Assembly: GCA_965602675.1 (NCBI GenBank)
Contig: CBFCZO010000008.1
Location: forward strand, 4,334-68,333
Origin: an uncultured bacterium
GTDB lineage: Bacteria > Acidobacteriota > DATKUA01
Length of the DNA stretch: 64,000 nt
Direction: 5' to 3'
Shown piece after piece: positions 5,108-59,138 of the stretch. The notes under the pieces were generated by a model. It was given only the letters and a program-made list of their open reading frames with translations, was not told where the DNA came from and did not search any database. Both the position numbers and the translations under genes were made by a program. Position 1 is the stretch's first letter. Every line of letters begins with the position of its first letter.

Positions 5108-5131
5108 TGCACCACCCTCTTTCGACACCCG

Positions 5132-6553: not shown

Positions 6554-6631
6554 TTGCCTTCCACTCCTTTCACACCTCTCAACGTTCCCTGCCGAAATCG
6601 GAATCGCCTGATCCCGCCGTCACAACGTGGC

Positions 6632-8086: not shown

Positions 8087-8107
8087 CTCATCCCCTGCAC
8101 AAACGGC

Positions 8108-9559: not shown

Positions 9560-9594
9560 ATTTTGCCTCCTGCAACCACCCGGAAAACAAGCCG

Positions 9595-16323: not shown

Positions 16324-16521
16324 TCAAGCGCTGACTTTCGCGGCGGGCTCCGCCGTGCCGCCCCAAACTCCAGCGCCTGAGCCGGTCCTGCCCGGCACTT
16401 CGGCCGAAGTGCGCTTCGCGCCCAGCCCGCACAGGGCCAGCACCACCAGCCGCAGTCTGCTCCTGCGCCACTCGTTAACCGTCGAGAGAAGTCCCGACAC
16501 TCTGTCGCTTGCCTTGCTCAT
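16324..16521 (-). CDS. Possible small ORF (65 aa) whose start overlaps the ftsZ stop as ATGA
   Basis: ATG overlaps the ftsZ TGA. Product MSKASDRVSGLLSTVNEWRRSRLRLVVLALCGLGA... In GC-rich sequence this may be a spurious ORF. Confidence 0.2.
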   Translation of the reverse strand: MSKASDRVSGLLSTVNEWRRSRLRLVVLALCGLGAKRTSAEVPGRTGSGAGVWGGTAEPAAKVSA

Positions 16522-28576: not shown

Positions 28577-29872
28577 TCAGACCTTGAAGATTGCGTTCTC
28601 GTTCTTGAACATCCTGGCGCAGAGCCATATTGCAATCCCTGCGATTACCAGGGTGCTGACGAAAGTTAGCGCGTAGTAATGCATCACCTCGAAGCCCTGG
28701 CCTGCCAGCACCTTCTTCAGCACCAGCGAGACGTTCACGACAGGAATCAGGGAAAGAGTGAAGTTGAGCTCGACTCCGGGCAGGAACGAAGCGAACGCGG
28801 GCAGAATGATCAGTATGGTGAGCGGCCCCATATATCCCTGGGCCTCGCGGTAGCTACGGGCGAACACAGAAATGGTCAGCAAGATGCCGGCGAACACGAA
28901 CGCCAACGGCACGACCAGCAACACTGCCAAGAGGATCGTCTGCGTATCGATGCTGAGTGTCATCACTTCCCTGAGCTGTCGCCCGATCTCTCCCATCGAG
29001 AAGCCGTAATAGAGGCCGACAAGGGCCAGCACGGATGAAATGACCCCGGTCATCACGATCACGAGAAACTTGCCGGTCACCAGCTCGATCCGGCTCGCGG
29101 GGCTGGCCAGCAGCGTCTCGAGAGTCTTCTGCTCCTTTTCGCCCGCGGCCATGTTTATCGCCGGGAACATCGCGCCGTTGAAGGTCATCAGGATGATCAT
29201 GTAGGGCAGAATCCTGCCGAATATCTCACCTGCTCTTTCCTGCCCGGTGGCCATGTCCTGGCCGGCGGTCTCGAACGGATCGATGATTGATGCCTGAAGG
29301 CTGGCGTTTTCCAGCCGACCGGCCACCACGCGTTGGCGATAAGTCGTCAAGCTCCTGCGCAGCCTCTCGAAGGCTTTCTCCGACCTCTCGCTGGTCGATA
29401 GGTAGTCGATGCGCAGGTTCAAGCCCTTGTCGTGATCCTGGAGCTGCCCCTGGAAATCCGGCGGGATCACCAGCACTGCGTCCAGTTGCTTCGAATCAAT
29501 CAGTTTCCTGATTTGGCCTTCTTCACCCGCCACCGGTGCATCATCGAGAATCTCGATAAATGCATTGACGCCCGACTGTTGTTCGATGGCGAATATGTTG
29601 AGATCACTCTCAACGGGCGGATTGAAGCGCTGCCGTTCCTCGTTCCTGAGGTAATCGATCAGGGCCGGCGCGTCTTCGGCGCCGACGACCGCCACCACGC
29701 TATTCCTCTCGGCAATCCCCTTGGCGCTGCCGATGGTGAACATGCTCATCAGGTACATCAAAGCTGGGATAAGAAACAGCGGCATAATGACCATAAATAT
29801 AACCGCGCGGCGGTCGCGGATTATATCCAACACTTCCTTGCGAAATACTACCCAGATTGTGCGCGGATTCAT
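28577..29872 (-). CDS. ABC-2 family permease (NatB-like)
   Basis: TM1, ~180 aa periplasmic loop, then TM2-6 with AGEKEQKTLETLL. Confidence 0.8.
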   Translation of the reverse strand: MNPRTIWVVFRKEVLDIIRDRRAVIFMVIMPLFLIPALMYLMSMFTIGSAKGIAERNSVVAVVGAEDAPALIDYLRNEERQRFNPPVESDLNIFAIEQQSGVNAFIEILDDAPVAGEEGQIRKLIDSKQLDAVLVIPPDFQGQLQDHDKGLNLRIDYLSTSERSEKAFERLRRSLTTYRQRVVAGRLENASLQASIIDPFETAGQDMATGQERAGEIFGRILPYMIILMTFNGAMFPAINMAAGEKEQKTLETLLASPASRIELVTGKFLVIVMTGVISSVLALVGLYYGFSMGEIGRQLREVMTLSIDTQTILLAVLLVVPLAFVFAGILLTISVFARSYREAQGYMGPLTILIILPAFASFLPGVELNFTLSLIPVVNVSLVLKKVLAGQGFEVMHYYALTFVSTLVIAGIAIWLCARMFKNENAIFKV

Positions 29873-30606
29873 TACTTTTCCCCCACTATCTTGACAAAGG
29901 CGTCCTCGAATTCATTCTCACCCGCCACCTGTTTCAGCGAATCGACTGTTCCCTGCGCGAAGAGCCTGCCGTTGTGGATAATAGCCACCTCGTCGCAGAG
30001 CCGCTCCGCCTCACGCATTATGTGAGTGGAGAAGATAATGCACTTGCCCTGATTCTTGCAGAAGTTGATGAAATCGACGATCGAGCGCGCGGCTAGTATA
30101 TCCAGCCCGACTGTCGGCTCGTCGAAGACCATGACGGGCGGATCGTGGACGATAGTGCGGGCGATGTTCACCTTCTGCTGCATTCCCGAGCTGAGCTTTG
30201 AGCACTTGGTGCCGAGGAAATCCTCCATGTCGAGCCACTTCGCGATCTCGGCTATTCTGGGGCCGATACTCTTACGATCCATGCCGTTGAGCTGGCCGAA
30301 ATAAGTAATCACCTCGCGGGCGGTCAGTCGCTGGTAGAGGCCGGTGTTGCCGGTGAGGAATCCGATCTTCGCCCTGACGAGGGAGGGTTTTTTCAGCACA
30401 TCGAGCCCATCGACCTCGATGCTCCCCGATGTCGGTTTCATCGTAGTCGAGACGATCCTGAGAGTTGTGGTTTTGCCGGCGCCGTTGGGCCCCAGCAGGC
30501 CGAAAATCTTGCCGGACTCGCAGGAAAAGCTGACATTGTCGACGGCACGTATTTCTCCCCGCTTCCGGTCTTTGAAGATTTTGATTAGATTTTTTACGGA
30601 AATCAT
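29872..30606 (-). CDS. ABC transporter ATP-binding protein (NatA-like), coupled to the permease
   Basis: Motifs GLLGPNGAGKTT, LSSGMQQK and VMVFDEPTVGLD. TAATG overlap with the downstream permease. Confidence 0.9.
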   Translation of the reverse strand: MISVKNLIKIFKDRKRGEIRAVDNVSFSCESGKIFGLLGPNGAGKTTTLRIVSTTMKPTSGSIEVDGLDVLKKPSLVRAKIGFLTGNTGLYQRLTAREVITYFGQLNGMDRKSIGPRIAEIAKWLDMEDFLGTKCSKLSSGMQQKVNIARTIVHDPPVMVFDEPTVGLDILAARSIVDFINFCKNQGKCIIFSTHIMREAERLCDEVAIIHNGRLFAQGTVDSLKQVAGENEFEDAFVKIVGEK

Positions 30607-47045: not shown

Positions 47046-47120
47046 GCCAGCGTAGCTCAGTGGTAGAGCAGCTGATTCGTAATCAGCAGGTCGGCGGTTC
47101 GAATCCGCCCGCTGGCTCCA
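47046..47120 (+). tRNA. tRNA-Thr (anticodon CGU)
   Basis: GCCAGCG-TA-GCTC-AGTGGTA-GAGC-A-GCTGA-TTCGTAA-TCAGC-AGGTC-GGCGG-TTCGAAT-CCGCC-CGCTGGC-T-CCA. Cloverleaf with anticodon CGT and encoded CCA. Confidence 0.9.
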
Positions 47121-47310: not shown

Positions 47311-48621
47311 CTATTGTGATTTCGCCCTGTAGAGTTTTCTAAGCTCTCTCAAGCTTTTGTCCGAGAAGAAGATGCAGTCTTTCTGGTTGGCGCGACCCCA
47401 TGACAGGTCTTTTGCGAATTCGTCACAGGTCGGCGCGCCGCAAAGTCCACAATCGATGCCCGGCAGGTTCATTTTTACGGCTTTCTCAAAGCCCATTCTC
47501 TTTACCCCGGCTTCAAGACTGCTTACTTTTTCTCCCAGAGTCCGGGGCTTGATTCTACGGTTCAGTGAAAAGTCCTCATGTGGAAATCTTCGCTTGACCG
47601 CAGCTTCGAGCTCAGGATCACTGTCAGGCAGCTCCTCCAACAAGCGCCTTATTTTACTCCGAGCAGTATAAATGTTATCAACAGTCAGATTTCCCCCAAC
47701 GCAGCCATCCCAGCAGGAGTAGCATTCAAGATACTCGATGTTGCGCAGCCGCCCCTTCTCGATGTCATCAAAAACTTGGATAATGTATCTCAACCCGGTC
47801 ACGGACAAGTATTGATGCAGCGAAAGGTAGCGGCCGTGCCGATTAGTTGTCGCCCAGTTGAGGATGCCGGCATCCGGAATGAGATTGTCGGAGAGATCCT
47901 TTGGTTTCTCTTTTTTCCTGGCTAGCCTGTCGGCCAGGATATGATTGTAAACATCCGAGATGCCGATAGCGCCGTCGAGGGAGCTCTCTGAACCTTCAGC
48001 GGGTTTAAGAATCGAGATGGTTTTTGCCTGACAAGGTGAAATGTAAATTGCTGCTATGTCTCCGCTATCGATACCCAGCTCTTCTGATAATTTCCGCTTG
48101 AGCACTCGACCAGCCAATTCGCGAGCCGGCTGGACGTGAATGAGCTGGTCGACAATTCCTGGATACAGGACTTGTACTAATCTCACCACCACCGGACATG
48201 TGATTGAGATGAGCGGATAAGGTCCCTTCCAATTCTCCAGGTACTCTTTAATTCCACGATCAACCAGCGCAAGCTCGGTTGAATAGTTCCAAACTGAATC
48301 GAAACCGAGACTGAGCAACCCTCTGACAATGTCTTCGATTGAAACGGCCATGGGGAACTGTGCAAAGAGGACCGGACTGGGGACGGCCACCTTAAACTTG
48401 TACTTGTGGATATCAGCAAATGTCAGCGTCGTGGGCCGGATCGCTCCACTAGGACAGACCGAAAAGCATACACCACAGTCGATACAAAACTCCGGTTTAA
48501 GGCTGGCTTTGCCATTACGAACGCGGATGGCATGCGTCGGGCAGGCGCGCAAACAAGCTAGTTTTCCACGACATTGATCCTCAACGATCTCAAAACCATG
48601 AGTGAAATCATCCATTTTCAT
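47311..48621 (-). CDS. [FeFe]-hydrogenase-like protein of the putative sensory (HydS-like) type
   Basis: N-terminal 2x[4Fe-4S] ferredoxin domain, CRGKLACLRACP and CIDCGVCFSVCP. H-cluster-like motifs: L1 degenerate ITCPVVV (TSCCP missing the proton-relay Cys), L2 SPCQAK, L3 LECYSCWDGCVGG. Extra C-terminal Cys cluster DCGLCGAPTCD...C. Confidence 0.65.
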   Translation of the reverse strand: MKMDDFTHGFEIVEDQCRGKLACLRACPTHAIRVRNGKASLKPEFCIDCGVCFSVCPSGAIRPTTLTFADIHKYKFKVAVPSPVLFAQFPMAVSIEDIVRGLLSLGFDSVWNYSTELALVDRGIKEYLENWKGPYPLISITCPVVVRLVQVLYPGIVDQLIHVQPARELAGRVLKRKLSEELGIDSGDIAAIYISPCQAKTISILKPAEGSESSLDGAIGISDVYNHILADRLARKKEKPKDLSDNLIPDAGILNWATTNRHGRYLSLHQYLSVTGLRYIIQVFDDIEKGRLRNIEYLECYSCWDGCVGGNLTVDNIYTARSKIRRLLEELPDSDPELEAAVKRRFPHEDFSLNRRIKPRTLGEKVSSLEAGVKRMGFEKAVKMNLPGIDCGLCGAPTCDEFAKDLSWGRANQKDCIFFSDKSLRELRKLYRAKSQ

Positions 48622-49045
48622 TTAACCTAATTATACTGGTAACTGATGTGCCGTTCCCCAGTGCAGATTCGATATTGAAGATGTCCGAGTTCTTTCTGAT
48701 ATTCGGTAAACCCATCCCAAAGCCGAATCCCATCATTCGCATTTCGTCGGTCGCGGTTGAATACCCCTCTGTCATGGCTTTTTCTATATCTTCAATTCCC
48801 GGACCCGTATCAACGATCCTCAAAGTGATATCTTCGTTGGTCAAAACAAAACTGATGGTTCCCTCGTGGGCGTACATGACCATGTTCATTTCGCCCTCGA
48901 ATGTAATAACTACAGTGCGACGGACAAGTTGCGGTGCTATTTGGAGGTCTTTCAGTATCTTCTTTATTTCATCTGCGACCTCCCCTGCTTTGTCATAGTC
49001 GCCGCCGCGGACCTTATAACTTCTTGTCAGCAGTTTTTCCGCCAT
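48608..49045 (-). CDS. Histidine-kinase-like ATPase (HATPase_c; anti-sigma/serine-kinase-like)
   Basis: IVDTGPGIEDIEKAM...GFGFGMGLPN...GNGTSVT, the G1/G2 boxes. I place the start at MAEKLL (49045). Confidence 0.7.
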   Translation of the reverse strand: MAEKLLTRSYKVRGGDYDKAGEVADEIKKILKDLQIAPQLVRRTVVITFEGEMNMVMYAHEGTISFVLTNEDITLRIVDTGPGIEDIEKAMTEGYSTATDEMRMMGFGFGMGLPNIRKNSDIFNIESALGNGTSVTSIIRLNENG

Positions 49046-49047
49046 AT

Positions 49048-49392
49048 CTACATACCGCCTTTCAGCCCGTTTTCGCGCAGGATGCCGCAAACATCGAACA
49101 CTCCCATCTTGGTCACCAGAACAGGGATGTCATATTTCCGGGCGTAATCGAGCGCCCTTTCCTCCGGGCGCTTGCCGCGGATGTAAACGATCGCCTGCGC
49201 ATCGGCCATGTGAGCGGTTCTCGCCGATTGAATATTGGTCAGGCTGGTAACCATTAAAGCGTTCGGGCGGGCAAAGGTAAGGATTTCACTCATTCCATCG
49301 GAAGCTATGACAATATCGATTTCGATCGAGAGGTCATTCTCGCCATTCAACACATCACATTCCAACAAATCCCTTATCTCAGAAAGCCTCAT
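49048..49392 (-). CDS. DRTGG-domain protein
   Basis: ~114 aa; ALMVTSLTNIQSARTAHMADAQAIVYIRGKRPEERALDYARKYDIPVLVT resembles the DRTGG domain. Confidence 0.6.
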   Translation of the reverse strand: MRLSEIRDLLECDVLNGENDLSIEIDIVIASDGMSEILTFARPNALMVTSLTNIQSARTAHMADAQAIVYIRGKRPEERALDYARKYDIPVLVTKMGVFDVCGILRENGLKGGM

Positions 49393-49648
49393 CCCAAGGT
49401 ACCTCCGGGAACATCTGTCTATACTTGATTATATATATTTTTTTGCTTAAAACCGCCCAGTCGCAAAGCACGGCGTATGGTTCCAGCCCGGCTTCCTTGA
49501 GCAACTTTGCTTCGTAAAATCTCCTCCTCTCTCTAATAAATATCTGAAGAGCCTTTGCCGACAGACTGCAGGCGGATGCATTCATTTGATGAACCGGTGT
49601 CGCGGCGCAGGAGAGCCTCTCCAATAAATTATCAACTGCCGATTTCAA
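49379..49648 (-). CDS. Hypothetical protein (89 aa)
   Basis: ORF overlapping the DRTGG gene start by 14 nt. Confidence 0.35.
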   Translation of the reverse strand: MKSAVDNLLERLSCAATPVHQMNASACSLSAKALQIFIRERRRFYEAKLLKEAGLEPYAVLCDWAVLSKKIYIIKYRQMFPEVPWDEAF

Positions 49649-49707
49649 TCGGACAGAATCCCAACCGTTTTATCTACCATCATGTGTGAATCTCAAGTTG
49701 GGTTATA

Positions 49708-51111
49708 TCAAGCCTTCTTCAGGAGGTGGTCGTTGATGTCCTTCGCCGCCTTCCTTCCGGCTCCCATTGCGCTGATGACCGTTGCCGCACCCGTGACAAC
49801 ATCCCCCCCCGCCCAGATCGCCTCGCGGGAGGTTCTGCCGGTTTCCTCATCGGCGACGATGTTACCTCGCCTACCGACCTCGAGGCCTGGAGTGGTCATG
49901 GGGATGAGGGGATTTGGGCTGTTGCCGATGCTGCAAACGGCGGCGTCTACTTCCATAGTGAATTCCGAACCCTCGATGGGGACAGGACGACGCCTGCCGG
50001 AATCGTCAGGCTCTCCGAGTTCCATCTTTAGGCATTCCAGCGCTGTAAGCCAGCCGTTATCATCCCCAAGAAGTCTTACAGGGAGAGTTAGAAAGTCGAA
50101 GATGATCCCTTCTTCCTCAGCGTTTTCTACCTCTTCGAGCCTCGCAGGCAACTCCTTACGGCTCCGGCGGTAGACAATGTGGACCTCATCGGCTCCCAAC
50201 CGCAACGCGGTCCGCGCGCAATCCATCGCTACATTCCCTCCTCCAAATACCGCCGCGTTGGACGCGCGCTTGATCGGCGTGTCATATTCCGGAAAACAAA
50301 ATCCCTTCATCAGGTTGCATCGTGTCAAATATTCGTTAGCGGAATAGACGCCGTTGAGATTCTCACCCGATATCTCAAGGAACCACGGTAAGCCTGCTCC
50401 CGCGCCGATGAAGATCGCATCGAATTCTTCGAGGAGTTTTTCAATTGTCAGTGTCTTGCCAATTATGTAATCGAGGTGCAATTGGACACCAAGACTCTTA
50501 ACGTATTCGACTTCGCGATTGACGATGGCTTTGGGCAGTCGGAATTCGGGTATGCCGTAGGTCAACACGCCGCCGGGCGCGTGAAGGGCTTCGAACATAG
50601 TAATATCGTGCCCGAGCAAAACCAGGTCATTAGCAACAGTTACCCCGGCCGGCCCGGATCCCACTATAGCGACCTTTTTTCCTGAAGCCGGCGCGATGTC
50701 GGGTCTTTCAATTTCTCCGCTCGCCGCCTCCCAATCGGCCAGGAAGCGTTCGAGCCGCCCAATTGCGACGGGTTCGCCCTTTTTCCCCAGGACACATTTT
50801 ATTTCGCACTGCTCCTCCTGAGGGCAAACACGCCCGCAAACCGCGGGCAAGGCATTGGCTTCTTTAATCTTTTTAATTCCCGCCGCGAAGTCGCGTTCGG
50901 CAATGTGCTGGATAAAGCCGGGTATGTCGATCATGACGGGGCAACCGTCGACGCAAAACGGCTTCTTGCAGTTCAGGCAGCGAGAGGCTTCCTCGACAGC
51001 GAGTTCTTCCGTATAGCCGAGTGCCACTTCGTCGAAATTCTTAATACGCTCGAACGGTTCCTGCTTGGGCATTGGCCGCCGCTTGAGATCTAATTTTTTG
51101 GCCAACGACAC
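49708..51111 (-). CDS. NAD(P)H-dependent oxidoreductase, GltD/NfnB/SudA-like (FAD, 2x[4Fe-4S])
   Basis: N-terminal Cys clusters CLNCKKPFCVDGCP...CGRVCPQEEQCEIKC, then VAIVGSGPAGVTVANDLVLLGHDITMFEALHAPGGVLTYGIPEFRLPK. Confidence 0.85.
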   Translation of the reverse strand: MSLAKKLDLKRRPMPKQEPFERIKNFDEVALGYTEELAVEEASRCLNCKKPFCVDGCPVMIDIPGFIQHIAERDFAAGIKKIKEANALPAVCGRVCPQEEQCEIKCVLGKKGEPVAIGRLERFLADWEAASGEIERPDIAPASGKKVAIVGSGPAGVTVANDLVLLGHDITMFEALHAPGGVLTYGIPEFRLPKAIVNREVEYVKSLGVQLHLDYIIGKTLTIEKLLEEFDAIFIGAGAGLPWFLEISGENLNGVYSANEYLTRCNLMKGFCFPEYDTPIKRASNAAVFGGGNVAMDCARTALRLGADEVHIVYRRSRKELPARLEEVENAEEEGIIFDFLTLPVRLLGDDNGWLTALECLKMELGEPDDSGRRRPVPIEGSEFTMEVDAAVCSIGNSPNPLIPMTTPGLEVGRRGNIVADEETGRTSREAIWAGGDVVTGAATVISAMGAGRKAAKDINDHLLKKA

Positions 51112-51120
51112 ACCCTCCGT

Positions 51121-51954
51121 TTAAAAATGCGAAGCGCAGCCGCTCTTACGGAGCGGATGGATTTCTTCGGGATTATATGTCTGACGCCGTTTAAGAAATT
51201 CAACCCAGTCGACTTCGTGACCGTCAAAGTCAGGTCCGTCAACGCATGCGAATTTCGTCTCTCCCGCCACTGTCAAGCGGCAGACACCGCACATTCCGGT
51301 GCCATCTATCATTATTGGATTCATACTAACTATCGTTTTAATTTCCAGGAGCTTTGTCATCTCGGAAGTCTTCATCATCTGGAATGTACAACCGTTGACG
51401 ATAACTCTGTCGGGCTTAGTCTTTTCAAGCTGCAGGATTTCATCAAGGCGCGATACGTGACCTTTGTAACCGGCTGTTCCATCCCGCGTTATGATGATGA
51501 CTTTTTCGCAGACCTCCTCGAACTTGTCCTGCCAATAGAGAAGATACGAACTACGCGCCTCCAGCAGCGCATAAACCTTATTACCCGCCTCCTTGAGTTC
51601 GCGAGCGATCGGATAGATGCTGCCGATGCCATAGCAGCCGCCGACACACAGCACCGTCCCGAAGTTGTCTATTTCAGTCTCCTTTCCCAGAGGTCCCGCG
51701 AAAGTGGGGATTGTATCGTCCGGTTCGAGCCGCGCCAGTTTTGATGTAGATGCTCCAACCTGCATGAAGATGGAGGTCACGGTGCCGGCTTCGCGGTCCC
51801 AGTCGGCAACTGACAAAGGGGTACGCTCGCCCGGCTCATCCGGCCTCACGATAACGAAGTTCCCGGGCAGGATCGACTGCGCGACCGCAGGCGCCTCGAC
51901 AGTAATCTCATGTAGGTTCGGAACTATCATCCGGCGTTCGATTATCCGATACAT
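51121..51954 (-). CDS. Ferredoxin-NADP reductase-like subunit (NfnA/SudB/PyrK-like; FAD plus 2Fe-2S)
   Basis: FNR-like fold with C-terminal CGVCRLTVAGETKFACVDGPDF. Adjacent to the NfnB-like gene. Confidence 0.8.
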   Translation of the reverse strand: MYRIIERRMIVPNLHEITVEAPAVAQSILPGNFVIVRPDEPGERTPLSVADWDREAGTVTSIFMQVGASTSKLARLEPDDTIPTFAGPLGKETEIDNFGTVLCVGGCYGIGSIYPIARELKEAGNKVYALLEARSSYLLYWQDKFEEVCEKVIIITRDGTAGYKGHVSRLDEILQLEKTKPDRVIVNGCTFQMMKTSEMTKLLEIKTIVSMNPIMIDGTGMCGVCRLTVAGETKFACVDGPDFDGHEVDWVEFLKRRQTYNPEEIHPLRKSGCASHF

Positions 51955-51978
51955 CCGGCCCTCCGGGTGCGCTGTTTA

Positions 51979-54549
51979 TCAGCAGCGGCTGCTTTTGCGC
52001 GGCTTTCCTTTTCCGGTTTTCCTGCCTGTTGAACCCGCGGCCCGCACATTTACCTTAACGGGATTCTCACTAATACGATAAAGGGGCTCCCAGTTGGAGC
52101 GGTGTGCGAGACCACCAAAGGCATCGGGGAGGAAAAAGTAAATAATTCCTTCGGGACACTCCGGTTCCGCCCTCGTCGTGCCAGTCACCTTCAGCGTGGT
52201 TGTTGAGACAGTGATGCTATTGCCAGGTTTTACCTTTAGCTTGCGTAAGTCTTCGGGATTAAGCCGAAAACCCTCTTCGAGAGCGAGTTCTCCCAGCCCC
52301 TCGACTTTCGAGCTCAAATCTATACCACGATGCCGGAAGCCTGCCGGTTCAGCAATCAGCAGGTATGATGCCGTTCCGGCTGCTTTGGTCTTTTGCTTCG
52401 CTTCGGTCTTCTGCTTCTTGATCGGAATCGATGTTTTGGGAACCAACCTGCGGGGCTTTCTATCGGGCTTCGAGGGAAAACCGGGAAAGACAGTGCTTAT
52501 CTCCTTCAGAACCGCACCCGAGTTTTTATAATTGAATCCCAGGTATTTCATCCTTTGCGCAAGGCTGCTGAAAATGAACCAATCCGGTCGAGCGAAACCT
52601 GAGATAACACCATCCGGCAGGTCTTCAACCTTGACCAGCCGTTGCACACGGCCTTCGACATTTGTAATCGTCCCTTCCGCCTCGACGAAACTCGAAGCGG
52701 GTAGAAAGGCGTCCACCTTGAAGGGGGGATAATAGATATCCTGCGCAACAATATATTCGCAATCGGGCCGTTCGAAGAACGGAACCTCTCCGACGAGATA
52801 TATCACCTTCGGTTTCGCTCGGCCTTCGATAACGTCGGTCAGCGTGATGTGCTTGCCTTTAGCTTTATCCACGCCGGGCAGAATCTCGCCCAGTGTGCCC
52901 ATTTCAAAGGCGCCGCGAGTGTTTGCTCCCTGATAGAGCGGGATGATGATGGAACCGTCCCGTTTCGCGAGCTTGTTGAGGGCGTCAACCAGGCCCGCGT
53001 TCGACTGATAATTGAATACCATCGGCCCGATCACTACGACAAGGTTCTTCCCGGAAGAAAGGATTCTGATAGCTTCTTCCAATAAGGCGGCATCGACGCC
53101 GGCCTGTTCCGCCACACCGGCGATGTCGCTCTTTTTCCTGCCGAGATTCTTCGCAATTGCGTCGAGAACGCCGCCTTCCTTACCCGGAGTGGGCTGCAGC
53201 CAATAATCCGTGTAGCGTGCCAGATTGGAATCGTATGGATTTATCGTTACCAGATTGGCTCCAGCTTTTAATGCATGCCTTATCTCAACTCCGACAATAG
53301 AGAAGTAGAAGCGTGAATCCAGCCCCATGGCAATGATTGAATCAGCCTCTCTGATACTCTTCAATGATATGGGGAGCGAGAACAGCTTGGCCCAAAGTCC
53401 CAGCCCGCCGGCCAACGAATGTCGCGCCGTCGAATCGATGCTGTTGGAGCTCATGCACGAGCGAACGAACTTCTGAGCGACATATAAGCTCTCATTTGTC
53501 AGGTCGCCCGACACGACCATCAGGAAGTCGGACGGCTTAAGACCTTCAAGTTTCCCGGCAACTTCAGTCAACGCCTCGTCCCACGTCACCTCGCGATAGT
53601 ATTTTCCGCGCTTGAATATCGGTTTCTTCGCCCGACTATAGTGATGCGACGTTTCCGGCATGGAGAACCTGCCGCGCACGCAGAGCTGCCCATCGTTGAT
53701 CTCGGGATCAAGGTTTGGCTGGACCTTGGAGAGGATTCCGTCTTTGTGAAGAAGCTCCACCTGGCACCCGATGCCACAGAACGGGCAGGTGGAAACCTCC
53801 ATTCCGTCGGGCAAACCGTCCCATTTCGAGGCCTTTTCCGCAAGCGTCCCGGTGGGGCAAACGCAGACACAGGCTCCGCAGAATTCGCAACCGGCTTCGA
53901 TATGGCTCTTACCATAAGCCGGACCGATCTGCACCCTCGGACCGCGGAAATTGAATGCCAGGATCCCGGTCCCGCGCACTTCCTGGCACATCCTGACGCA
54001 GCGACCGCACAGGATACAGATATTGTAATCCCTGTCGAAAAACGGATCGTCGTGCTCGACCTCGTTTCCACGGTAATAGCAGGGGTACTCAATATCGGTT
54101 ACACCGACTTTTTCGACTACATCCTGGAGTTCGCACTGTCCGTCGTTGGGGCAATAGCGGCAGCCGGTAGTGACCCCGGCCTTCCTGATGGTGTACTGGT
54201 TGTCACGGCATTCGTCTTTTTCGTCGCAGATGAGGCAACTCGCGGGATGCTCGCTGAGGATCAGTTGGAGGATTTCTTTTCTCATCTCGTGCAGAGTCGC
54301 CGTGTCGGTCAGGACCTTCATCCCTTCCTCGGCGATTGTGCTGCACGATAAGGGATAATCCCGCATCCCCTCAATTTCGACCATGCACATCCGGCAGCCG
54401 CCGAACGGTGTCAGATCTTTGTGTGAACAGAGGGAAGGGATGTATATATCGTTCAATTCGGCGGCGCGCAGAACGGTCACTCCCTGGGGGAAGGAGACTT
54501 TGCGGTGGTTGATCTCCATCTCGAGGTTGTGTGTTTTTCGCGGACTCAC
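51979..54549 (-). CDS. NuoG/FdhA-like molybdopterin-oxidoreductase-family Fe-S subunit (2Fe-2S plus 4Fe-4S clusters; shortened catalytic region)
   Basis: N-terminal 2Fe-2S domain (CSHKDLTPFGGCRMCMVEIEG), a His-ligated cluster, then 2x4Fe-4S. Molybdopterin Fe4S4 motif CPFCGIGCQ...DGQLCVRGRF, TWDEAL. Molydop-binding-like C-terminal barrel. No SeCys or Cys-His active-site pair found. Start may be the internal MEINHRK. Confidence 0.75.
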   Translation of the reverse strand: MSPRKTHNLEMEINHRKVSFPQGVTVLRAAELNDIYIPSLCSHKDLTPFGGCRMCMVEIEGMRDYPLSCSTIAEEGMKVLTDTATLHEMRKEILQLILSEHPASCLICDEKDECRDNQYTIRKAGVTTGCRYCPNDGQCELQDVVEKVGVTDIEYPCYYRGNEVEHDDPFFDRDYNICILCGRCVRMCQEVRGTGILAFNFRGPRVQIGPAYGKSHIEAGCEFCGACVCVCPTGTLAEKASKWDGLPDGMEVSTCPFCGIGCQVELLHKDGILSKVQPNLDPEINDGQLCVRGRFSMPETSHHYSRAKKPIFKRGKYYREVTWDEALTEVAGKLEGLKPSDFLMVVSGDLTNESLYVAQKFVRSCMSSNSIDSTARHSLAGGLGLWAKLFSLPISLKSIREADSIIAMGLDSRFYFSIVGVEIRHALKAGANLVTINPYDSNLARYTDYWLQPTPGKEGGVLDAIAKNLGRKKSDIAGVAEQAGVDAALLEEAIRILSSGKNLVVVIGPMVFNYQSNAGLVDALNKLAKRDGSIIIPLYQGANTRGAFEMGTLGEILPGVDKAKGKHITLTDVIEGRAKPKVIYLVGEVPFFERPDCEYIVAQDIYYPPFKVDAFLPASSFVEAEGTITNVEGRVQRLVKVEDLPDGVISGFARPDWFIFSSLAQRMKYLGFNYKNSGAVLKEISTVFPGFPSKPDRKPRRLVPKTSIPIKKQKTEAKQKTKAAGTASYLLIAEPAGFRHRGIDLSSKVEGLGELALEEGFRLNPEDLRKLKVKPGNSITVSTTTLKVTGTTRAEPECPEGIIYFFLPDAFGGLAHRSNWEPLYRISENPVKVNVRAAGSTGRKTGKGKPRKSSRC

Positions 54550-54556
54550 ATTACCC

Positions 54557-56428
54557 TCATGACTCGATTACGATGGCGTCGCCGGCGACAGCATCGAAGC
54601 GACAGATTTCGTAACACGACCGGCACTTAATGCACTTATCCTCGTCGAGGAAGTGGGGCTGGGAGCGGGGCCCGGAGATGGCCCCTGTGGGGCAGACTTC
54701 CACGCACCGCTGGCAGCCAGTACACTTGCCTTCGATGATGCGGTAAACAACGAGGTCGCGACAGACCGCGGCAGGACAGCGTTTATCCTTGATGTGCAAC
54801 AAGAATTCGTCTCGGAAGTATTTCAGCGAAGAGAGAATTGGGTTAGGGGCTGTCTGCCCCAGTCCGCAAAGAGACCCCCCTTTGATCGCTTTGCCGAGTC
54901 TTTCGAGCTTGGCTAAATCCTCGAGTTCACCCTTTCCGTGACAAATCTTCTCAAGTATGTGCACAAGATGCTTTGTGCCGACGCGGCACGGCACGCACTT
55001 TCCGCAGGATTCCTCCTGTGTAAAATTCAAAAAGTACTTCGCCATATCGACGATACATGTGTCCTTGTCCAACACAATCAAGCCACCGGACCCCATGATT
55101 GAGCCGGCGGCAGCAAGGTTTTCATAATCGATGGGAGTGTCCAGAAATTCTTCGCTGAGGCAACCGCCGGAGGGCCCCCCGGTCTGAACCGCCTTGAACT
55201 CTTTGACCAGACCTCCGCCGATATCGTAAATGATCTCGCGAAGTGTCATTCCGAACGGGACTTCGATCAAGCCGGCCCGCCTCACCTTTCCCACGAGGCT
55301 GAACGTCTTGGTTCCCTTTGTTTTCTCCGTTCCGAATTGGCTGTACCATTCGGCTCCATTGCGGATGATTGTGGCAAGCACGCTAAGCGTCTCGACGTTG
55401 TTGATTATCGTCGGCTTCCCCCAGAGGCCGGAAACAGCCGGGAACGGCGGCCTGGTGCGGGGCATCCCTCGCTTGCCCTCGACAGATGCGATGAGGGCGG
55501 TTTCCTCTCCGCAAACAAATGCGCCTGCCCCTTCTTTGATTTTTATCTCAAAATCGAAACCGCTTCCGAGAATGTTTTGGCCGAGCAATCCGAGAGTCTG
55601 CATCTGGCTGATTGCAGCCCTCAAGCGGGCGATGGCCAGCGGGTATTCCGCGCGGATGTAGATAATTCCCTTGCTCGCTCCGATAGTGTAGGCGGCGATA
55701 AGCATGCCCTCGAGGAGTGCATGCGGATCGCCTTCGATGAGCGAGCGGTTCATGAAAGCGCCGGGATCGCCCTCGTCGGCATTGCATATCAGATATCGCT
55801 GGTCGCTTTGGGTCTCGCGGCAGAATTGCCACTTGCGCCATGTCGGGAATCCCGCTCCGCCACGACCCCGAAGACCGGAGGCCTTCACCTCCTCCAGCAC
55901 ATTCTCCCACGGCATCGAGATGCACTTCTCGAAGGCCTCGTAGCCGCCGCGCGCCAGGTAGTGGTCGACATCATCCGGATTGATGACGCCGCAGTTTCTA
56001 AGGACCACGCGGACCTGGGGCGCAAGCATGGGCAGATCGAAGAATCGGGGCACGCCGTCGATTTCATCTTCGCCGAAGTGTCCCGCAAGGTTGAATTTCG
56101 GAATCTCGTTTTTCACAAAGTATGAATCAAGAATCCTCTCCGTCATCGCCGGTGTGACGTTCGAGTGGCTGATACGAGGCAACTGCGGCATCTGGATATC
56201 AACTAACGGCTCGAGATAACACGGGCCGATACAACCGACCTCGAACAATGTTGCGTTGACCTTCTTTTCCTTGGCGTATTGTTTAATAGATTCGATGACT
56301 TCAACCGCACCGGCAGCCCTGCCACAGGAACCCGCGCCCACATATATGATGGGCCGAGTGTTGTTCTGTAGCTTCTTCCACTTGGCTACCGCAGTGGATC
56401 GCCGATCATTAATCGTCATCGTGCTCAT
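54557..56428 (-). CDS. NuoF-like NADH-binding flavoprotein subunit (HydB/HoxF/FdhB type) with N-terminal thioredoxin-like domain and C-terminal 2x[4Fe-4S]
   Basis: GRGGAGFPTWRKW, FMN/NADH site, ESCGKCVPCR, and C-terminal CTGCQRCVEVCP...CIKCRSCYEICR. I chose an internal Met start (~56428) so it does not overlap the nuoE-like gene. The exact start is uncertain. Confidence 0.82.
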   Translation of the reverse strand: MSTMTINDRRSTAVAKWKKLQNNTRPIIYVGAGSCGRAAGAVEVIESIKQYAKEKKVNATLFEVGCIGPCYLEPLVDIQMPQLPRISHSNVTPAMTERILDSYFVKNEIPKFNLAGHFGEDEIDGVPRFFDLPMLAPQVRVVLRNCGVINPDDVDHYLARGGYEAFEKCISMPWENVLEEVKASGLRGRGGAGFPTWRKWQFCRETQSDQRYLICNADEGDPGAFMNRSLIEGDPHALLEGMLIAAYTIGASKGIIYIRAEYPLAIARLRAAISQMQTLGLLGQNILGSGFDFEIKIKEGAGAFVCGEETALIASVEGKRGMPRTRPPFPAVSGLWGKPTIINNVETLSVLATIIRNGAEWYSQFGTEKTKGTKTFSLVGKVRRAGLIEVPFGMTLREIIYDIGGGLVKEFKAVQTGGPSGGCLSEEFLDTPIDYENLAAAGSIMGSGGLIVLDKDTCIVDMAKYFLNFTQEESCGKCVPCRVGTKHLVHILEKICHGKGELEDLAKLERLGKAIKGGSLCGLGQTAPNPILSSLKYFRDEFLLHIKDKRCPAAVCRDLVVYRIIEGKCTGCQRCVEVCPTGAISGPRSQPHFLDEDKCIKCRSCYEICRFDAVAGDAIVIES

Positions 56429-56867
56429 CAAGGATCCTATGGAGTCTGAGTACCGACACCCGGCTGATAATCTTGTCATCGAAAGCAACGACCGGCGCGA
56501 GAGCGCAGCATCCCAGGCATGCGACTCGCTCCAGATCGTACTTGCCGTCGGCGGAAGTTTCGCCGGGCTTGATATCGAGTCGGCGATCGATAACATCGAG
56601 CAGCTGCTCGCCTCCCCTCACATGGCAGGCGGTTCCGAGACAAACCTTGATATGATGTTCACCCGGCGGGGAGAAGCGGAATTGCGCGTAGAAAGTGGCG
56701 ACGCCGAAAACCTCGTTCTCCGATACTTTGAGCCATCGTGATATCCGGTGTATCACTTCGGGGGAAAGATACCCATCGACTTTCTGTATCTGCTGTAAAA
56801 CGGGAATCAGGTCCGACGCTTCGCCCTTAAAACCTTGAATTACCTTTTCGAATGCCCTTCCCGTCAT
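56409..56867 (-). CDS. NuoE-like 2Fe-2S thioredoxin-fold subunit (HydC/HoxE type)
   Basis: CLGTACHVRGGEQL...CLGCCALAPVV, the four Cys of the NuoE [2Fe-2S] cluster. Confidence 0.85.
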   Translation of the reverse strand: MTGRAFEKVIQGFKGEASDLIPVLQQIQKVDGYLSPEVIHRISRWLKVSENEVFGVATFYAQFRFSPPGEHHIKVCLGTACHVRGGEQLLDVIDRRLDIKPGETSADGKYDLERVACLGCCALAPVVAFDDKIISRVSVLRLHRILDEHDDD

Positions 56868-56971
56868 AACCCGGATTCCACGTTTAGTATCTAGTTGTTT
56901 ATTAACCTCAAGCCAAGCTCAGAGAGCGTCAAGGCTCACGTAACAAACTGTCAAGCTAGGGGAGAAAAGTC

Positions 56972-57310
56972 TTATTTAATTCCGATTTCGGCCAGATTCA
57001 TCGCGAAGGACCAGGTATCCAATTCTGTGAAGAAAAGCCCGATACCGGCCTTCGCGGCGAGCTTGATAACGTCATCTTCAGGCTTCTTGTTTCGAGCGAA
57101 AACAATTGCAGCGACGTCGACAAGATTCGCCGCCGCAATGATGCTCTTATTCGTCTGAAGAGTGATTAATATACTGTTTGCTTTCGGCCCGGTGATGATA
57201 TCCGAGACCATATCGGAAATGTAGACTCCCTCCACCTCTTTATCTATGAATTCATTAAGAGCCTTAAGGCTCAATTTCTCTGCGATAACGGATACTTTCA
57301 TCCCTAGCAC
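56972..57310 (-). CDS. DRTGG-like domain protein (second copy)
   Basis: ~110 aa; ILITLQTNKSIIAAANLVDVAAIVFARNKKPEDDVIKLAAKAGIGLFFT parallels the 49048-49392 product. Confidence 0.5.
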   Translation of the reverse strand: MLGMKVSVIAEKLSLKALNEFIDKEVEGVYISDMVSDIITGPKANSILITLQTNKSIIAAANLVDVAAIVFARNKKPEDDVIKLAAKAGIGLFFTELDTWSFAMNLAEIGIK

Positions 57311-57368
57311 CCTCCTAAGTCATAACTGAGTGATCGTTGTCATAGCTTCACTTAATCCGGGTAACCGC

Positions 57369-57890
57369 TCAGTAGAATTCTGTTAGATTCTTGTCTGCGA
57401 TCACTATTCCCTCGCACGTATCGATGCTGCAGCACATCTTACAAGGGACTACTATGATCTTTTTGTTCGGATCTTTGATGGATGCGTTGAAATACTCCGT
57501 GAGCGCCTTAATGCCCTCATCACTCACGCACCTTCCATCAGGATGAGTGCTGTCAGCACATAATGCGACATAGATCCAGGTGTTATCTCCGGCTTCGGCT
57601 GAGAGCCGAGCAACCTCGCATTCCGGATTGCTACAAGTGGAAAGCATCAAACCCATCATGTCGTTGAGGCTGACTACATGGCCGCATTCTTTACACTGCA
57701 GATCGAATTTCACTGCCTGAAAGCAGCCAAGATGCTTCCAGTAGTGCTCTCCGTCATGATAGTTGTCGACAGGTGGTACCGGCTCGACTGAGAAAAACGA
57801 GGCGCGCGCTTTACATTTGTAGCATCCCTCGACTACGAGGTAACCGCTGCGGACATTGATTATGGACATACTGTGTGTACAGACACTCAT
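57369..57890 (-). CDS. Cys-rich hypothetical protein (possible Zn/Fe-S binding), first gene of the redox operon
   Basis: Start at MSVCTHSM with a strong ribosome-binding site GAGGAAGG. Multiple CxxC pairs: CYKCKA, CKECGH, CSNPEC, CKMCC and CEG. Confidence 0.5.
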   Translation of the reverse strand: MSVCTHSMSIINVRSGYLVVEGCYKCKARASFFSVEPVPPVDNYHDGEHYWKHLGCFQAVKFDLQCKECGHVVSLNDMMGLMLSTCSNPECEVARLSAEAGDNTWIYVALCADSTHPDGRCVSDEGIKALTEYFNASIKDPNKKIIVVPCKMCCSIDTCEGIVIADKNLTEFY

Positions 57891-58427
57891 TAGTCCTTCC
57901 TCATGGATTCTGAAATGAGTTATTCTCCGGTCTCCCTGCCTCCCTCCGAGTATATGATAACCAATGGACAAACGGCGCTGAGATCAGCCTCTGTGGACCA
58001 GGGTCTGATTTACTGTCGTCTTGTATAATACCCTTGTTATATTACTAATAATATACTCCGCGCACTGATGTCAACACTGGAATAAGCCGAGTCATTCCCA
58101 GGCCTCCCGCATTGCTTTTTTTGATCAGCAAGCCACTGCCGTGATCAGCTCGGGGGGTAATCGTGAGGATAAAATTACACGAAAGCGAGGTCGCCGATCC
58201 GATTGAAGTGTACGGAAATAACCCGGACGAGCCGATATGGACCACTGCCAGGGGCCGTTCTGAGTCGGGAGAAATGATCAGGCTCTTAAGAATGTTCAGT
58301 AAATGTGCAAGCAGTTGACTGCCGCATTTATATAGCACAACCGCGGGCAATCAACGGGATAGAACTGATTTAAGAGGTGAGATCATCCGTAAAATTATTA
58401 TCTGGGCAAAGCCTGCCAGATGAATAT

Positions 58428-59138
58428 CTAGACCAATCCCCGCTGTTTCATTCCACAGATAATCATGTCCACCATTTCCGAGGGGGAACAACGTGCGTTG
58501 TTGATGACCAGATCAAAATCATCTCTATGGCCCGCCTCCCGGCAGAAATGGTAGCAGAAGAATTGCTTGCGGGTTTTATCCATCATATCCACGTATTTTT
58601 CGGCTTCGTACTCGCTGTCGAAGTCGTGCTGAAGCGCAGCTTGCTCCAGGCGCCACTTTTTAGGTGCCACCATCTGCACGTGAAAACCGGCCGGCATGTC
58701 CGCACACACAAGATAACCACCGCGCCCGATAATTACTGCTCTCCCGTGCCATGCAATACATTTGATTACCCTCGCCATCCGTATGAACAGCTTGTCGCAG
58801 GAGGTTGTTTTAAGCTCCATTACCTTCAGGAATTCCTCATAATGTCTCCGGTGTTCGGGGGGCATCGAATCGATAATACGCTCCAGCAACTGATCACCCT
58901 TCGCCACCCACTCAACCAGCGTTTTGTCGAAGGCATCCCAAGGCGGCCCCGATTCAGTAATCGCCGACAGCTTATCGACCAACCGGGTTGCAGTCTCGAA
59001 CGATTCACAACCGAATTCGCGCGAAATAGTAATGAAAGGCTGCGGTTTTCCCTTCTCCAAGGGATAATCGTACTTCTTGAAAGATTCAATCCTTCGCGCA
59101 ATGACTCCCTCAACATCCATGGTGGCCAAGGTTTTCAT
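58428..59138 (-). CDS. Cytidylate-kinase-like family (AAA_28-like P-loop) protein
   Basis: FITISREFGCE... N-terminus typical of the cytidylate kinase-like family. Confidence 0.6.
   Translation of the reverse strand: MKTLATMDVEGVIARRIESFKKYDYPLEKGKPQPFITISREFGCESFETATRLVDKLSAITESGPPWDAFDKTLVEWVAKGDQLLERIIDSMPPEHRRHYEEFLKVMELKTTSCDKLFIRMARVIKCIAWHGRAVIIGRGGYLVCADMPAGFHVQMVAPKKWRLEQAALQHDFDSEYEAEKYVDMMDKTRKQFFCYHFCREAGHRDDFDLVINNARCSPSEMVDMIICGMKQRGLV

Follow-up and report, generated by a model that had tools for sequence, protein, structure and literature searches.

Within a 64,000-nucleotide (nt) stretch of DNA from an uncultured acidobacterium (lineage DATKUA01; assembly GCA_965602675.1, contig CBFCZO010000008.1), here called the window and used as the coordinate frame throughout, we analysed a minus-strand operon at 47311-57890 that sets genes for a NuoEFG-like module of the bifurcating Bfu type beside genes for both subunits of an NfnAB-like enzyme and for a sensor-type [FeFe]-hydrogenase homolog. 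Eleven co-oriented minus-strand open reading frames (ORFs) spanning 47311-57971 were found by ORF listing and assigned by Pfam, NCBIfam and PDB sequence searches (Table 1). A preliminary description of the locus had presented all eleven as members of a single operon; each is present where it had been placed, and ten are real genes. In the direction of transcription these encode a Cys-rich protein (CysR), a first DRTGG-domain protein (DRTGG1), the NuoE-, NuoF- and NuoG-like subunits, NfnA, NfnB, a second DRTGG-domain protein (DRTGG2), a small ATPase and the hydrogenase homolog (the HydS homolog), and the intergenic gaps in the five-gene core that runs from NuoE to NfnB are 7-24 nt.

The eleventh ORF, of 89 amino acids (aa), had been described as encoding a hypothetical protein of the operon. 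None of 80 related loci contains a homolog of it (best E 1.8), it is missing from the operon of the closed Phycisphaerales genome CP070744.1, and the spacer between NfnB and DRTGG2 that contains it (49393-49707), which is 316 nt long here and 195-277 nt in four Phycisphaerae relatives, shrinks elsewhere to 1-90 nt, too short to hold it. Since no homolog occurs in the 80 loci and the spacer is only 1-90 nt in most relatives, we treat this ORF as spurious. The spacer could carry an internal promoter or another element controlling the sensor genes. When 46-60 kb was scanned for promoters, terminators and Rfam families, sites were no more frequent than expected by chance, with a tRNA as the sole RNA match.

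Table 1. Genes and ORFs of the operon in order of transcription, with window coordinates.
Feature	Coordinates	Strand	Characteristics
Cys-rich protein (CysR)	57369-57890	-	173 aa from Met28; without family
DRTGG-domain protein 1	56972-57310	-	~110 aa; PF07085 E 1.9e-07; accessory or regulatory
NuoE/BfuC-like thioredoxin-like [2Fe-2S] subunit	56409-56867	-	152 aa; PF01257 E 6.8e-47
NuoF/BfuB-like FMN/NAD(H) subunit	54557-56428	-	623 aa; PF01512, PF10531, PF10589, 2x Fer4
NuoG/BfuA-like iron-sulfur subunit	51979-54549	-	856 aa; formate-dehydrogenase-like domain catalytically dead
NfnA/NfnS-like FAD/[2Fe-2S] subunit	51121-51954	-	277 aa; PF10418; altered nucleotide loop GGCYGIG
NfnB/NfnL-like subunit	49708-51111	-	467 aa; Fer4_20 + Pyr_redox_2; bifurcating FAD, NADP(H) site, 2x[4Fe-4S]
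89-aa ORF in NfnB-DRTGG2 spacer	49379-49648	-	no Pfam match; most likely not a gene
DRTGG-domain protein 2	49048-49392	-	114 aa; PF07085 E 3.9e-07; accessory or regulatory
Small stand-alone GHKL ATPase (HATPase_c)	48608-49045	-	145 aa; PF02518 E 7e-08; without HisKA
Group D (M2e) putative sensory [FeFe]-hydrogenase	47311-48615	-	434 aa; Fer4 x2, PF02906, PF04060

The NuoE- and NuoF-like proteins match the BfuC/BfuB core of bifurcating enzymes, and from their sequences a bifurcating activity is predicted. By the definitions of Schut et al. 2022 (PMC9304861), BfuB is characterised by flavin mononucleotide (FMN)-binding, SLBB, NuoF-4Fe4S and ferredoxin-type 4Fe-4S domains, BfuC by a NuoE-type domain, and BfuA by at least one 2Fe-2S and one 4Fe-4S ferredoxin-type domain; the 623-aa and 152-aa proteins have the domains of BfuB and BfuC, and the 856-aa protein has those of BfuA (Fer2_4, NADH-G_4Fe-4S_3, Fer4_Nqo3). 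The NuoE-like protein also passes the NCBIfam NuoE model NF005722 (142.5 bits against a cut-off of 141). The NuoF-like protein, whose 623-aa start we took from the gene call in the closed Phycisphaerales genome, has a thioredoxin-like N-terminus, a GGPSG motif and a C-terminal 2x[4Fe-4S] domain, and had been assigned to the bifurcating HydB/HoxF type. Its best PDB relatives are BfuB subunits of bifurcating enzymes, matched over nearly the full length: 9bov_B (E 3e-229), Caldicellulosiruptor (Csac) NfnB 9n5u_B (4e-225), NiFe-HydB 7t2r_B (7e-222) and StnB 8oh5_B (3e-218), with the HydB subunits of three [FeFe] enzymes at 3e-205 to 2e-194 and an estimated identity of ~65% to the solved bifurcating BfuB chains.

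The position of HydA in this operon is held, as first described, by a NuoG/FdhA-like protein with neither H-cluster motifs nor a Cys/Sec-His active site. Pfam identifies Fer2_4, NADH-G_4Fe-4S_3, Fer4_Nqo3, Molybdop_Fe4S4 and Molybdopterin domains in the 856-aa protein and no H-cluster domain (PF02906), so that membership in the trimeric [FeFe]-hydrogenases (HydABC) was rejected. The best solved relatives are alpha subunits of NAD-dependent formate dehydrogenases, namely 9wxb_B (E 9e-80) and Rhodobacter FdsA (6tg9_A, 2e-78; identity to FdsA ~30%), followed by Acetomicrobium NiFe-HydA, the large subunits of Stn/NfnABC and then NuoG. When representatives of the family were aligned with true FdsA homologs from Pseudomonas and Bacteroidales loci, the Cys-His pair of the 'ARxCH' (ARVCHS) motif was found to give way to variable residues and a one-residue gap, and the catalytic Arg of 'PLRGQNNVQG' to be replaced in all orthologs shown, whereas the Pseudomonas and Bacteroidales references keep both. 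An ORF check revealed no in-frame TGA in the 856-aa gene that could encode selenocysteine.

Across 40 orthologs of this subunit the iron-sulfur ligands that serve the [2Fe-2S] cluster, the His-ligated cluster, the two ferredoxin-type clusters and the Molybdop_Fe4S4 cluster are each invariant or kept in at least 37 sequences. In addition, a family-specific insertion of 25 aa (54130-54210, residues ~115-140) duplicates the CxxCx5C motif that comes after the His-ligated cluster motif; its three cysteines (C130, C133, C139) are conserved to the same degree. It is missing from all solved NuoG, HydA, FdsA and Stn structures, HMMER alignments to HydA structures break exactly at this point, and it may hold an extra cluster or a Zn site.

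Downstream of this subunit, the NfnAB pair closely resembles NfnAB/NfnSL of Thermotoga maritima (4YLF) and Pyrococcus furiosus (5JCA), with lengths, cluster-binding motifs and the GIPEFRLPK segment in common. NfnB aligns over its full length with T. maritima NfnB (4ylf_B, E 5e-177; ~64% identity by manual count from the alignment), passes TIGR01316, and keeps in GIPEFRLPK the Arg near N5 of the flavin adenine dinucleotide (FAD), a residue whose role has been described (PMC10482914). NfnA matches P. furiosus NfnS (5jca_S, E 1e-72) and T. maritima NfnA (4ylf_A, 8e-64) and passes NCBIfam NF004862 (342 bits against a cut-off of 220), with fold and cluster motif conserved. Since the GltD-like domain of Stn/NfnABC gives weaker matches (E 4e-83 to 5e-100), the operon NfnAB stands much nearer to the canonical enzyme than to that domain.

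What sets the operon pair apart from NfnAB/NfnSL is its embedding with NuoEFG-like genes, which it always adjoins in the loci examined, the fusion of NfnA to the NuoG-like protein in a sister family (see below), and the Gly-rich nucleotide loop of NfnA (51630-51650, residues 105-111), which reads GGCYGIG in place of the canonical GGGVG(I/V)A. The [GA]GCYG form is present in every operon-linked or fused NfnA that we checked, and the GGGVG form in Thermotoga NfnA, in Pyrococcus NfnS and in a stand-alone NfnA from a related acidobacterial locus (L036; L-numbers label the related loci). There, a second, canonical-looking NfnAB with a GGGVGIA loop lies directly after the HydS gene (L036 17144-19400); its two proteins share 43% and 57% identity with those of the operon. 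The loop of P. furiosus NfnII-S deviates as well (GAYTG), and that complex is functionally different from NfnI (PMC7483475); the altered loop of the operon NfnA may change NAD(H) binding.

To establish how far this arrangement is conserved, one genome per species was scanned, yielding 486 relatives of the 856-aa protein, the best 80 of which were taken further, with gene order determined by tblastn of the window proteins on the related loci. Among these best 80 of 486, about 46 loci, all from metagenome-assembled genomes (MAGs), carry the BfuA-like family at 42-84% identity. About 40 loci, spread over at least 8 phylum-level lineages, have the five-gene core order. The full ten-gene order, whose conservation in relatives had been proposed as a check, recurs in about 26 loci with complete flanks and in a further 5 truncated loci, drawn from Phycisphaerae/Planctomycetota (the closest, at 70-76%), Acidobacteriota/Aminicenantes, Desulfobacterota, Eisenbacteria, Krumholzibacteriota, Brocadiia, Thermoleophilia and one Eubacteriales MAG; the closed Phycisphaerales genome CP070744.1 (L085) has the same ten genes, and two other closed genomes, Thermodesulfobacteriota ORM2a (CP113000.1) and Aminicenantes OY969762.1, also contain the operon. 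Because the same order recurs in several phyla, the arrangement is far beyond chance.

The accessory genes are missing from 9 core loci, found in Actinomycetes, Desulfocapsaceae and one MAG labelled Pseudomonadota, and in locus L024 the five accessory genes form one contiguous divergent block on the opposite strand. Clustering of ORFs over 49 loci revealed no further conserved neighbour family around the operon. Given the nine core-only loci, the L024 block and the lack of any other conserved neighbour, we regard the unit as a five-gene core together with a separable five-gene accessory module.

Evidence that the two halves of the core belong together came from a locus of Hydrogenedentota (L071), in which the NuoG-like iron-sulfur domains and NfnA form one 864-aa polypeptide, with NfnB following and NuoE and a NuoF-GltD fusion preceding it. 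In this NuoF-GltD fusion (L071 6840-9950; 1036 aa), the C-terminal two-cluster ferredoxin domain of the NuoF-like protein is replaced by a GltD-like Fer4_20 plus FAD/NAD(P) module, so that the operon holds two GltD-type modules (NuoF-GltD and NfnB); a similar BfuB variant has been mentioned for 'sub-type I' hydrogenases (PMC11406978). When the L071 NuoG-NfnA fusion was used as query, proteins of ~830 aa that combine these domains were recovered in at least 120 clusters, whose members stem from Hydrogenedentota, Planctomycetota and Dehalococcoidia as well as from numerous metagenomes, and two further fusion loci, in a Planctomycetota MAG and a Dehalococcoidia MAG, proved to be four-gene operons (NuoE-NuoF-[NuoG-NfnA]-NfnB) without regulators. 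Between the fused and split families, identity is 42-44% for the NuoG-like part, 46-51% for NfnA and 61-63% for NfnB, and they have two derived markers in common, the NfnA [GA]GCYG loop and the duplicated CxxCx5C insertion, the latter present in 120/120 fused and 38/40 split sequences. Recurrent gene fusion is a classical sign of physical association. Since NuoG and NfnA have been fused recurrently, NfnAB can be viewed as a 'third-substrate module' of a Bfu-type core, with NADP(H) as the third substrate, and a single complex of NfnAB with the NuoEFG-like module is the most probable arrangement. The preliminary description had called the terminal reaction unclear; the fusions now indicate NfnAB, and with it NADP(H), as the partner.

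The last gene of the operon had been described as HydS-like. Because the deposited gene begins two residues downstream of the 436-aa translation used at first, the protein is given here as 434 aa. It consists of two [4Fe-4S] ferredoxin-type domains (Fer4 x2), an H-domain (PF02906, E 1.3e-20) and a C-terminal Cx2Cx4Cx16C motif (PF04060), and a Pfam search detected no PAS domain. The original motif reading, with L2 and L3 present and L1 degenerate (TCP), was correct: the motifs are ITCP, SPCQAK and ECYSCWDGC. In an alignment of 30 orthologs taken from the related loci, the H-cluster cysteines C142, C197, C303 and C307 are invariant (30/30), as are C391 and C394 of the C-terminal motif, with C399 and C416 kept in 29/30 (spacing x2, x4, x16). 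At the Lys position of PCxxK, 27 sequences have Lys and 3 have Arg; the residue equivalent to the proton-relay Cys299 is Ser in 22 and Thr in 4 of the 30, including Thr in the window protein; and the equivalent of Met353 is Thr in 29, the single Ser being that of the window protein. A hydroxyl residue in place of Met353 has been described as a hallmark of M2e enzymes (PMC8163306), and group D/M2e as a whole is defined by an N-terminal 2x[4Fe-4S], a C-terminal Cx2Cx4Cx16C, no PAS, loss of Cys299 and replacement of Met353 by Ser/Thr (Land et al., PMC8163306).

By these sequence features the 434-aa protein is assigned to the group D (M2e) putative sensory [FeFe]-hydrogenases. Its assignment as a sensor-type protein that has lost the proton-relay Cys thus stands, and the label changes from HydS-like to group D/M2e, as the protein is not a PAS-containing HydS. 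Against the NCBIfam group A and B1 hydrogenase models it scores 70-82 bits, with cut-offs of 406-450 bits, and its motifs together with these curated cut-offs rule out a complete catalytic group A enzyme, which had been named as the outcome that would overturn the sensor assignment. It aligns collinearly with TamHydS, the characterised group D enzyme of Thermoanaerobacter mathranii, in a pairwise comparison that used TamHydS DNA recovered from the supplement of PMC13104023 with damage from optical character recognition (OCR). The two share length class and domain order, and the TamHydS motif variants match the window type (SACP without the relay Cys, ISPCAAK, GGCIGG, CGSPTC-x16-C), whereas identity is ~30-35%, an estimate from the OCR-damaged DNA, and the genomic partner is different.

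Group D genes usually adjoin a group A trimeric bifurcating hydrogenase (PMC3561251, PMC8163306). This usual context is absent here: neither the window nor, in about 30 loci, the DNA within 10 kb encodes a HydA with an H-cluster. Seventy group D enzymes have been listed (PMC13104023 supplement); by our own taxonomic reading they come only from Firmicutes, Bacteroidetes, Synergistetes and Coprothermobacter, and none of the host phyla of the operon (Planctomycetota, Acidobacteriota, Desulfobacterota and similar) is represented among them. The physiological role and interaction partners of the group D 'sensory' hydrogenases are regarded as open (PMC13104023).

The other four accessory proteins are small and less readily classified. 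CysR, found at the operon head in 28 loci at 53-74% identity, has about 11 Cys and 3 His as invariant residues; word-based searching gave 227 matches, all annotated 'hypothetical', only 77 representatives occur among 1.84 billion proteins, Pfam and NCBIfam gave no match, and a confident AlphaFold2 model (predicted local distance difference test score, pLDDT, 81.8) had no fold match in the PDB (best E 0.067, template modelling score 0.30). The position of DRTGG1 is conserved in 29 loci and DRTGG2 adjoins the HATPase gene in 31, and neither protein has a PDB relative by sequence. The ATPase, whose start was taken from the gene call in the near-identical locus L081, weakly resembles SpoIIAB/RsbW-type Ser kinases, with the NCBIfam anti-sigma F factor model TIGR01925 matched at E 1.2e-11, below its cut-off, and SpoIIAB as best PDB relatives (E 0.05). 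The HydS gene always accompanies the ATPase and DRTGG genes. Since the module is dispensable for the core, in the nine loci and in the fused family, and since HydS moves with ATPase and DRTGG, a regulatory rather than a catalytic role is favoured. The recurrence of such a module beside trimeric bifurcating hydrogenases, invoked from the outset, is documented for M2e enzymes and adjacent kinases: such hydrogenases and the trimeric enzymes downstream of them are separated by a few genes, kinases among them, in Caldicellulosiruptor, Thermoanaerobacter, C. thermocellum and others (PMC3561251, PMC8163306). A literature search for DRTGG proteins beside hydrogenases returned nothing relevant.

Taken together, we propose, with somewhat better than even confidence, that the products of the five core genes make up a single soluble complex with several flavins and iron-sulfur clusters, which serves the interconversion of NADPH, NADH and ferredoxin and is accompanied by a separable accessory module; in effect, the core complex would most likely be a redox balancer of the transhydrogenase type. 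NADP(H) would react at the FAD of NfnB and NAD(H) at the FMN of BfuB, and the docking site of ferredoxin would be the C-terminal 2x[4Fe-4S] of BfuB, the clusters of NfnB, or both. The BfuA-like subunit would act only as wire and scaffold linking NfnAB to the BfuBC bifurcation core, its dead formate-dehydrogenase-like domain being comparable to that of Sporomusa StnC, where an inactive FdhF-like domain has a structural or assembly role (PMC10482914). The accessory module may report H2 or redox state and adjust the activity or expression of the complex, in parallel with the M2e/kinase modules beside the HydABC hydrogenases of Firmicutes. The sequence data show the domain content, the conserved cofactor ligands, the lost formate-dehydrogenase site, the conserved operon and the NuoG-NfnA fusion of the sister family; from these we infer the physical assembly, the direction and stoichiometry of electron flow, the activity of both bifurcation sites, H2 binding by the sensor and the signalling route. 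We propose only this coarse function, in which either end of NfnAB may contact the BfuA-like subunit. The original view of a bifurcating NAD(P)H/ferredoxin module under H2 or redox control remains the best reading of the locus.

Several points weigh against this proposal. The NuoG-NfnA fusion is known from the sister family, at 42-50% identity, and not from the window operon itself, and the NfnAB pair seems to have everything needed to bifurcate by itself. Placing two bifurcation sites in series has no obvious thermodynamic rationale: by our own estimate, using physiological potentials from PMC9304861, feeding the low-potential branch of NfnB into BfuBC would need an acceptor near -680 mV, and the estimated stoichiometry, 4 NADPH + 3 NAD+ + 2 Fd(ox) -> 4 NADP+ + 3 NADH + 2 Fd(red), where Fd is ferredoxin, is possible and has no obvious use. 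Tandem bifurcation as a means of saving ferredoxin in NADPH synthesis was considered and rejected, as by the same potentials it is endergonic in that direction. Stn and Nfn are reported to be nearly mutually exclusive in acetogens (PMC7483475), which makes the combination of NuoEFG-like proteins with NfnAB unexpected. On the regulatory side, the DRTGG, ATPase and Cys-rich proteins are putative signalling partners, H2 sensing is still a hypothesis even for TamHydS (PMC13104023), and a scan of 30 other window ORFs identified neither a hydrogenase nor HydE/F/G within the 64 kb; a radical-SAM gene at 23836-24921 is RlmN-like.

One alternative is that the operon co-transcribes two independent enzymes, a stand-alone NfnAB and a NuoEFG-like NADH/ferredoxin module serving an unlinked hydrogenase, formate dehydrogenase or 11-subunit complex I. 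NfnA and NfnB are indeed full-length, without docking extensions and close to the Nfn of T. maritima and P. furiosus, and there is precedent, as in Chloroflexi (PMC5736913), for NuoEFG operons located away from their partners. Against this, the sister family of NuoG-NfnA fusions is large and keeps this gene order, the five genes are strictly adjacent across phyla with the short gaps given above, no conserved partner gene lies nearby, and the derived GCYG loop is found in operon-linked NfnA and not in stand-alone copies, so that we judge two separate enzymes unlikely. Still less credence is due to an NAD-dependent formate dehydrogenase of the FdsABG type. The best PDB matches of the 856-aa protein are FdsA-type alpha subunits and the NuoE-NuoF-FdsA order is that of fds operons, but the Cys/Sec-His pair is deleted or replaced and the Arg replaced where true FdsA homologs keep them, no TGA lies in frame, and identity to FdsA is low. 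A standard formate dehydrogenase active site, flagged at first as something that might have been missed, is thus not there, and loss of the Cys/Sec-His pair and the Arg rules this possibility out for practical purposes.

Two further alternatives concern the hydrogenase homolog. It might be catalytic after all, a group D H2 module docked on the site-less BfuA-like subunit as the NiFe subunits are on HydA in NiFe-HydABCSL, which would make the whole an H2-dependent NAD(P)+/ferredoxin enzyme. All H-cluster ligands are conserved, as is the PCxxK Lys in 27/30 orthologs, the BfuA-like subunit lacks a catalytic site of its own, TamHydS turns over H2, although slowly (PMC8163306), and a separate catalytic subunit has precedent among the Type 3 Bfu enzymes (PMC9304861). 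However, the core operon does without a HydS homolog in nine loci and throughout the fused family, the HydS gene travels with ATPase and DRTGG, on the opposite strand in L024, and the protein has lost the proton-relay Cys and lies far under the curated cut-offs for catalytic hydrogenases; we consider a catalytic role distinctly improbable. Alternatively, the signal read by the accessory module could be the redox state of ferredoxin or NAD(P)H, the iron-sulfur status or O2 rather than H2, with the hydrogenase-like protein an iron-sulfur protein without the [2Fe] subcluster. The 64 kb contain neither hydE/F/G nor hydrogenase genes, the regulated enzyme would not itself use H2, and H2 fails to reduce the C-terminal cluster of TamHydS (PMC13104023). 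Yet the four H-cluster cysteines, the Lys (27/30) and the group-D-specific Thr/Ser at the Met353 position are kept in 30 orthologs from several phyla, which is hard to explain without an H-cluster. Maturase genes, moreover, are commonly unlinked. A module blind to H2 therefore also seems to us unlikely.

A number of observations were made on the surroundings of the operon. A tRNA-Thr(CGT) gene at 47046-47120 on the plus strand is convergent to the operon end. Another sample yielded a contig (L081) that, at 98.9% identity, follows the window from 51615 to 47073 and departs from it within this tRNA gene; at L081 4480-4545 only the 3' 48 nt of the tRNA are kept, followed by unrelated AT-rich DNA, which looks like a mobile element integrated at the tRNA in a sister strain. 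The operon is immediately preceded, on its own strand, by a cytidylate-kinase-like (PF13189) gene (58428-59138), and a MAG labelled Acidobacteriota (L006, ~17032) has a 57%-identical PF13189 copy directly behind the operon, encoded on the other strand; this hints at either a shared neighbourhood or mis-binning of that MAG. In CP070744.1, a gene for pyruvate:ferredoxin oxidoreductase (L085 1-1632), ~8 kb upstream of the operon, is a plausible source of reduced ferredoxin. Farther away in the window, four tandem paralogous ABC-2-type permease genes (3608-10302, minus strand; ~480 aa each) lie downstream of an ABC ATPase gene, with a second ABC-2/ATPase pair at 28577-30606, and an FtsA-like gene stands beside a gene of the tubulin/FtsZ family (16518-19015, minus strand), of which only the GTPase domain was detected (E 4e-23). 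This pair would be notable if the window belongs to Planctomycetota, to which the closest operon relatives point, because that phylum is generally described as lacking FtsZ.

One of the closest characterised systems is Stn/NfnABC (Type 1 Bfu) of Sporomusa ovata, Caldicellulosiruptor saccharolyticus and Thermococcus sibiricus. It shares with the window operon a NuoE/NuoF-type BfuBC core (BfuB ~65% identical, estimated), a large subunit with NuoG-like iron-sulfur domains and an inactive FdhF-like domain (PMC10482914), and an NADP(H) site on a GltD/NfnB-type FAD module, such as NfnB provides here. In this three-subunit enzyme, however, BfuA itself contains the GltD-like module, which no longer bifurcates, and there is no NfnA/NfnS, whereas the window operon encodes a separate canonical NfnB with the FAD-N5 Arg segment, an NfnA, and a BfuA-like subunit with the additional CxxCx5C insertion; by Pfam, this subunit contains no Pyr_redox or Fer4_20 domain and is thus not a Stn-type fusion. 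HydABC with an upstream M2e and kinase, as in Caldicellulosiruptor, Thermoanaerobacter and C. thermocellum, has in common the BfuBC-type core, the M2e sensor-like protein and an adjacent small ATPase, and differs in that the window operon has a dead formate-dehydrogenase-like domain in place of the H-cluster domain, and NfnAB in addition. Geobacter sulfurreducens SfrAB, compared by description, likewise pairs a NuoG/formate-dehydrogenase-like protein with a GltD-like NADPH flavoprotein, and has neither a NuoE/NuoF core nor an NfnA. SfrA is not known to have a Mo ligand. SfrAB is listed among homologs in PMC7483475.

The Bfu partner types named in the available text of PMC9304861 are H-cluster, NiFe, Fdh, fused-Nfn, F420, Wor, Por, Codh, Bam, Rub, Nuo and Mbh, with clades 1-17 unassigned; separate NfnA and NfnB are not among the types described there. 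In the structural work on Stn and NfnABC, NfnSL and Bfu are presented as alternatives unrelated to each other, and we found no description of a NuoEFG-like plus NfnAB operon in open-access papers and bioRxiv preprints, although an earlier account may exist elsewhere. As a more specific and decidedly tentative suggestion, which we think possible and on balance doubtful, the operon would define a new Bfu class, in which a full flavin-bifurcating NfnAB is wired through a site-less BfuA to a BfuBC FMN/cluster core, so that two types of bifurcation site would give an NADPH/NADH/ferredoxin stoichiometry, or a reachable potential, unlike those of Nfn and Stn, with activity set by a group D [FeFe]-hydrogenase acting as H2 sensor for a target that is not a hydrogenase.

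Bfu and NfnSL have been seen as two unrelated solutions to the balancing of NADPH, NADH and ferredoxin, and our findings suggest that they are physically combined in many uncultured anaerobes among the Planctomycetota, Acidobacteriota/Aminicenantes, Desulfobacterota, Actinomycetota, Hydrogenedentota and Dehalococcoidia. The operon and the fused family offer a specific case in which bifurcation sites of two kinds may occur in one complex, and the operon family may fill some of the Bfu clades to which no function is assigned. Since the sensor module travels with four fixed small partner proteins and with a target enzyme predicted neither to make nor to use H2, the system would separate sensing from catalysis and names candidate partners for the group D sensory hydrogenases.

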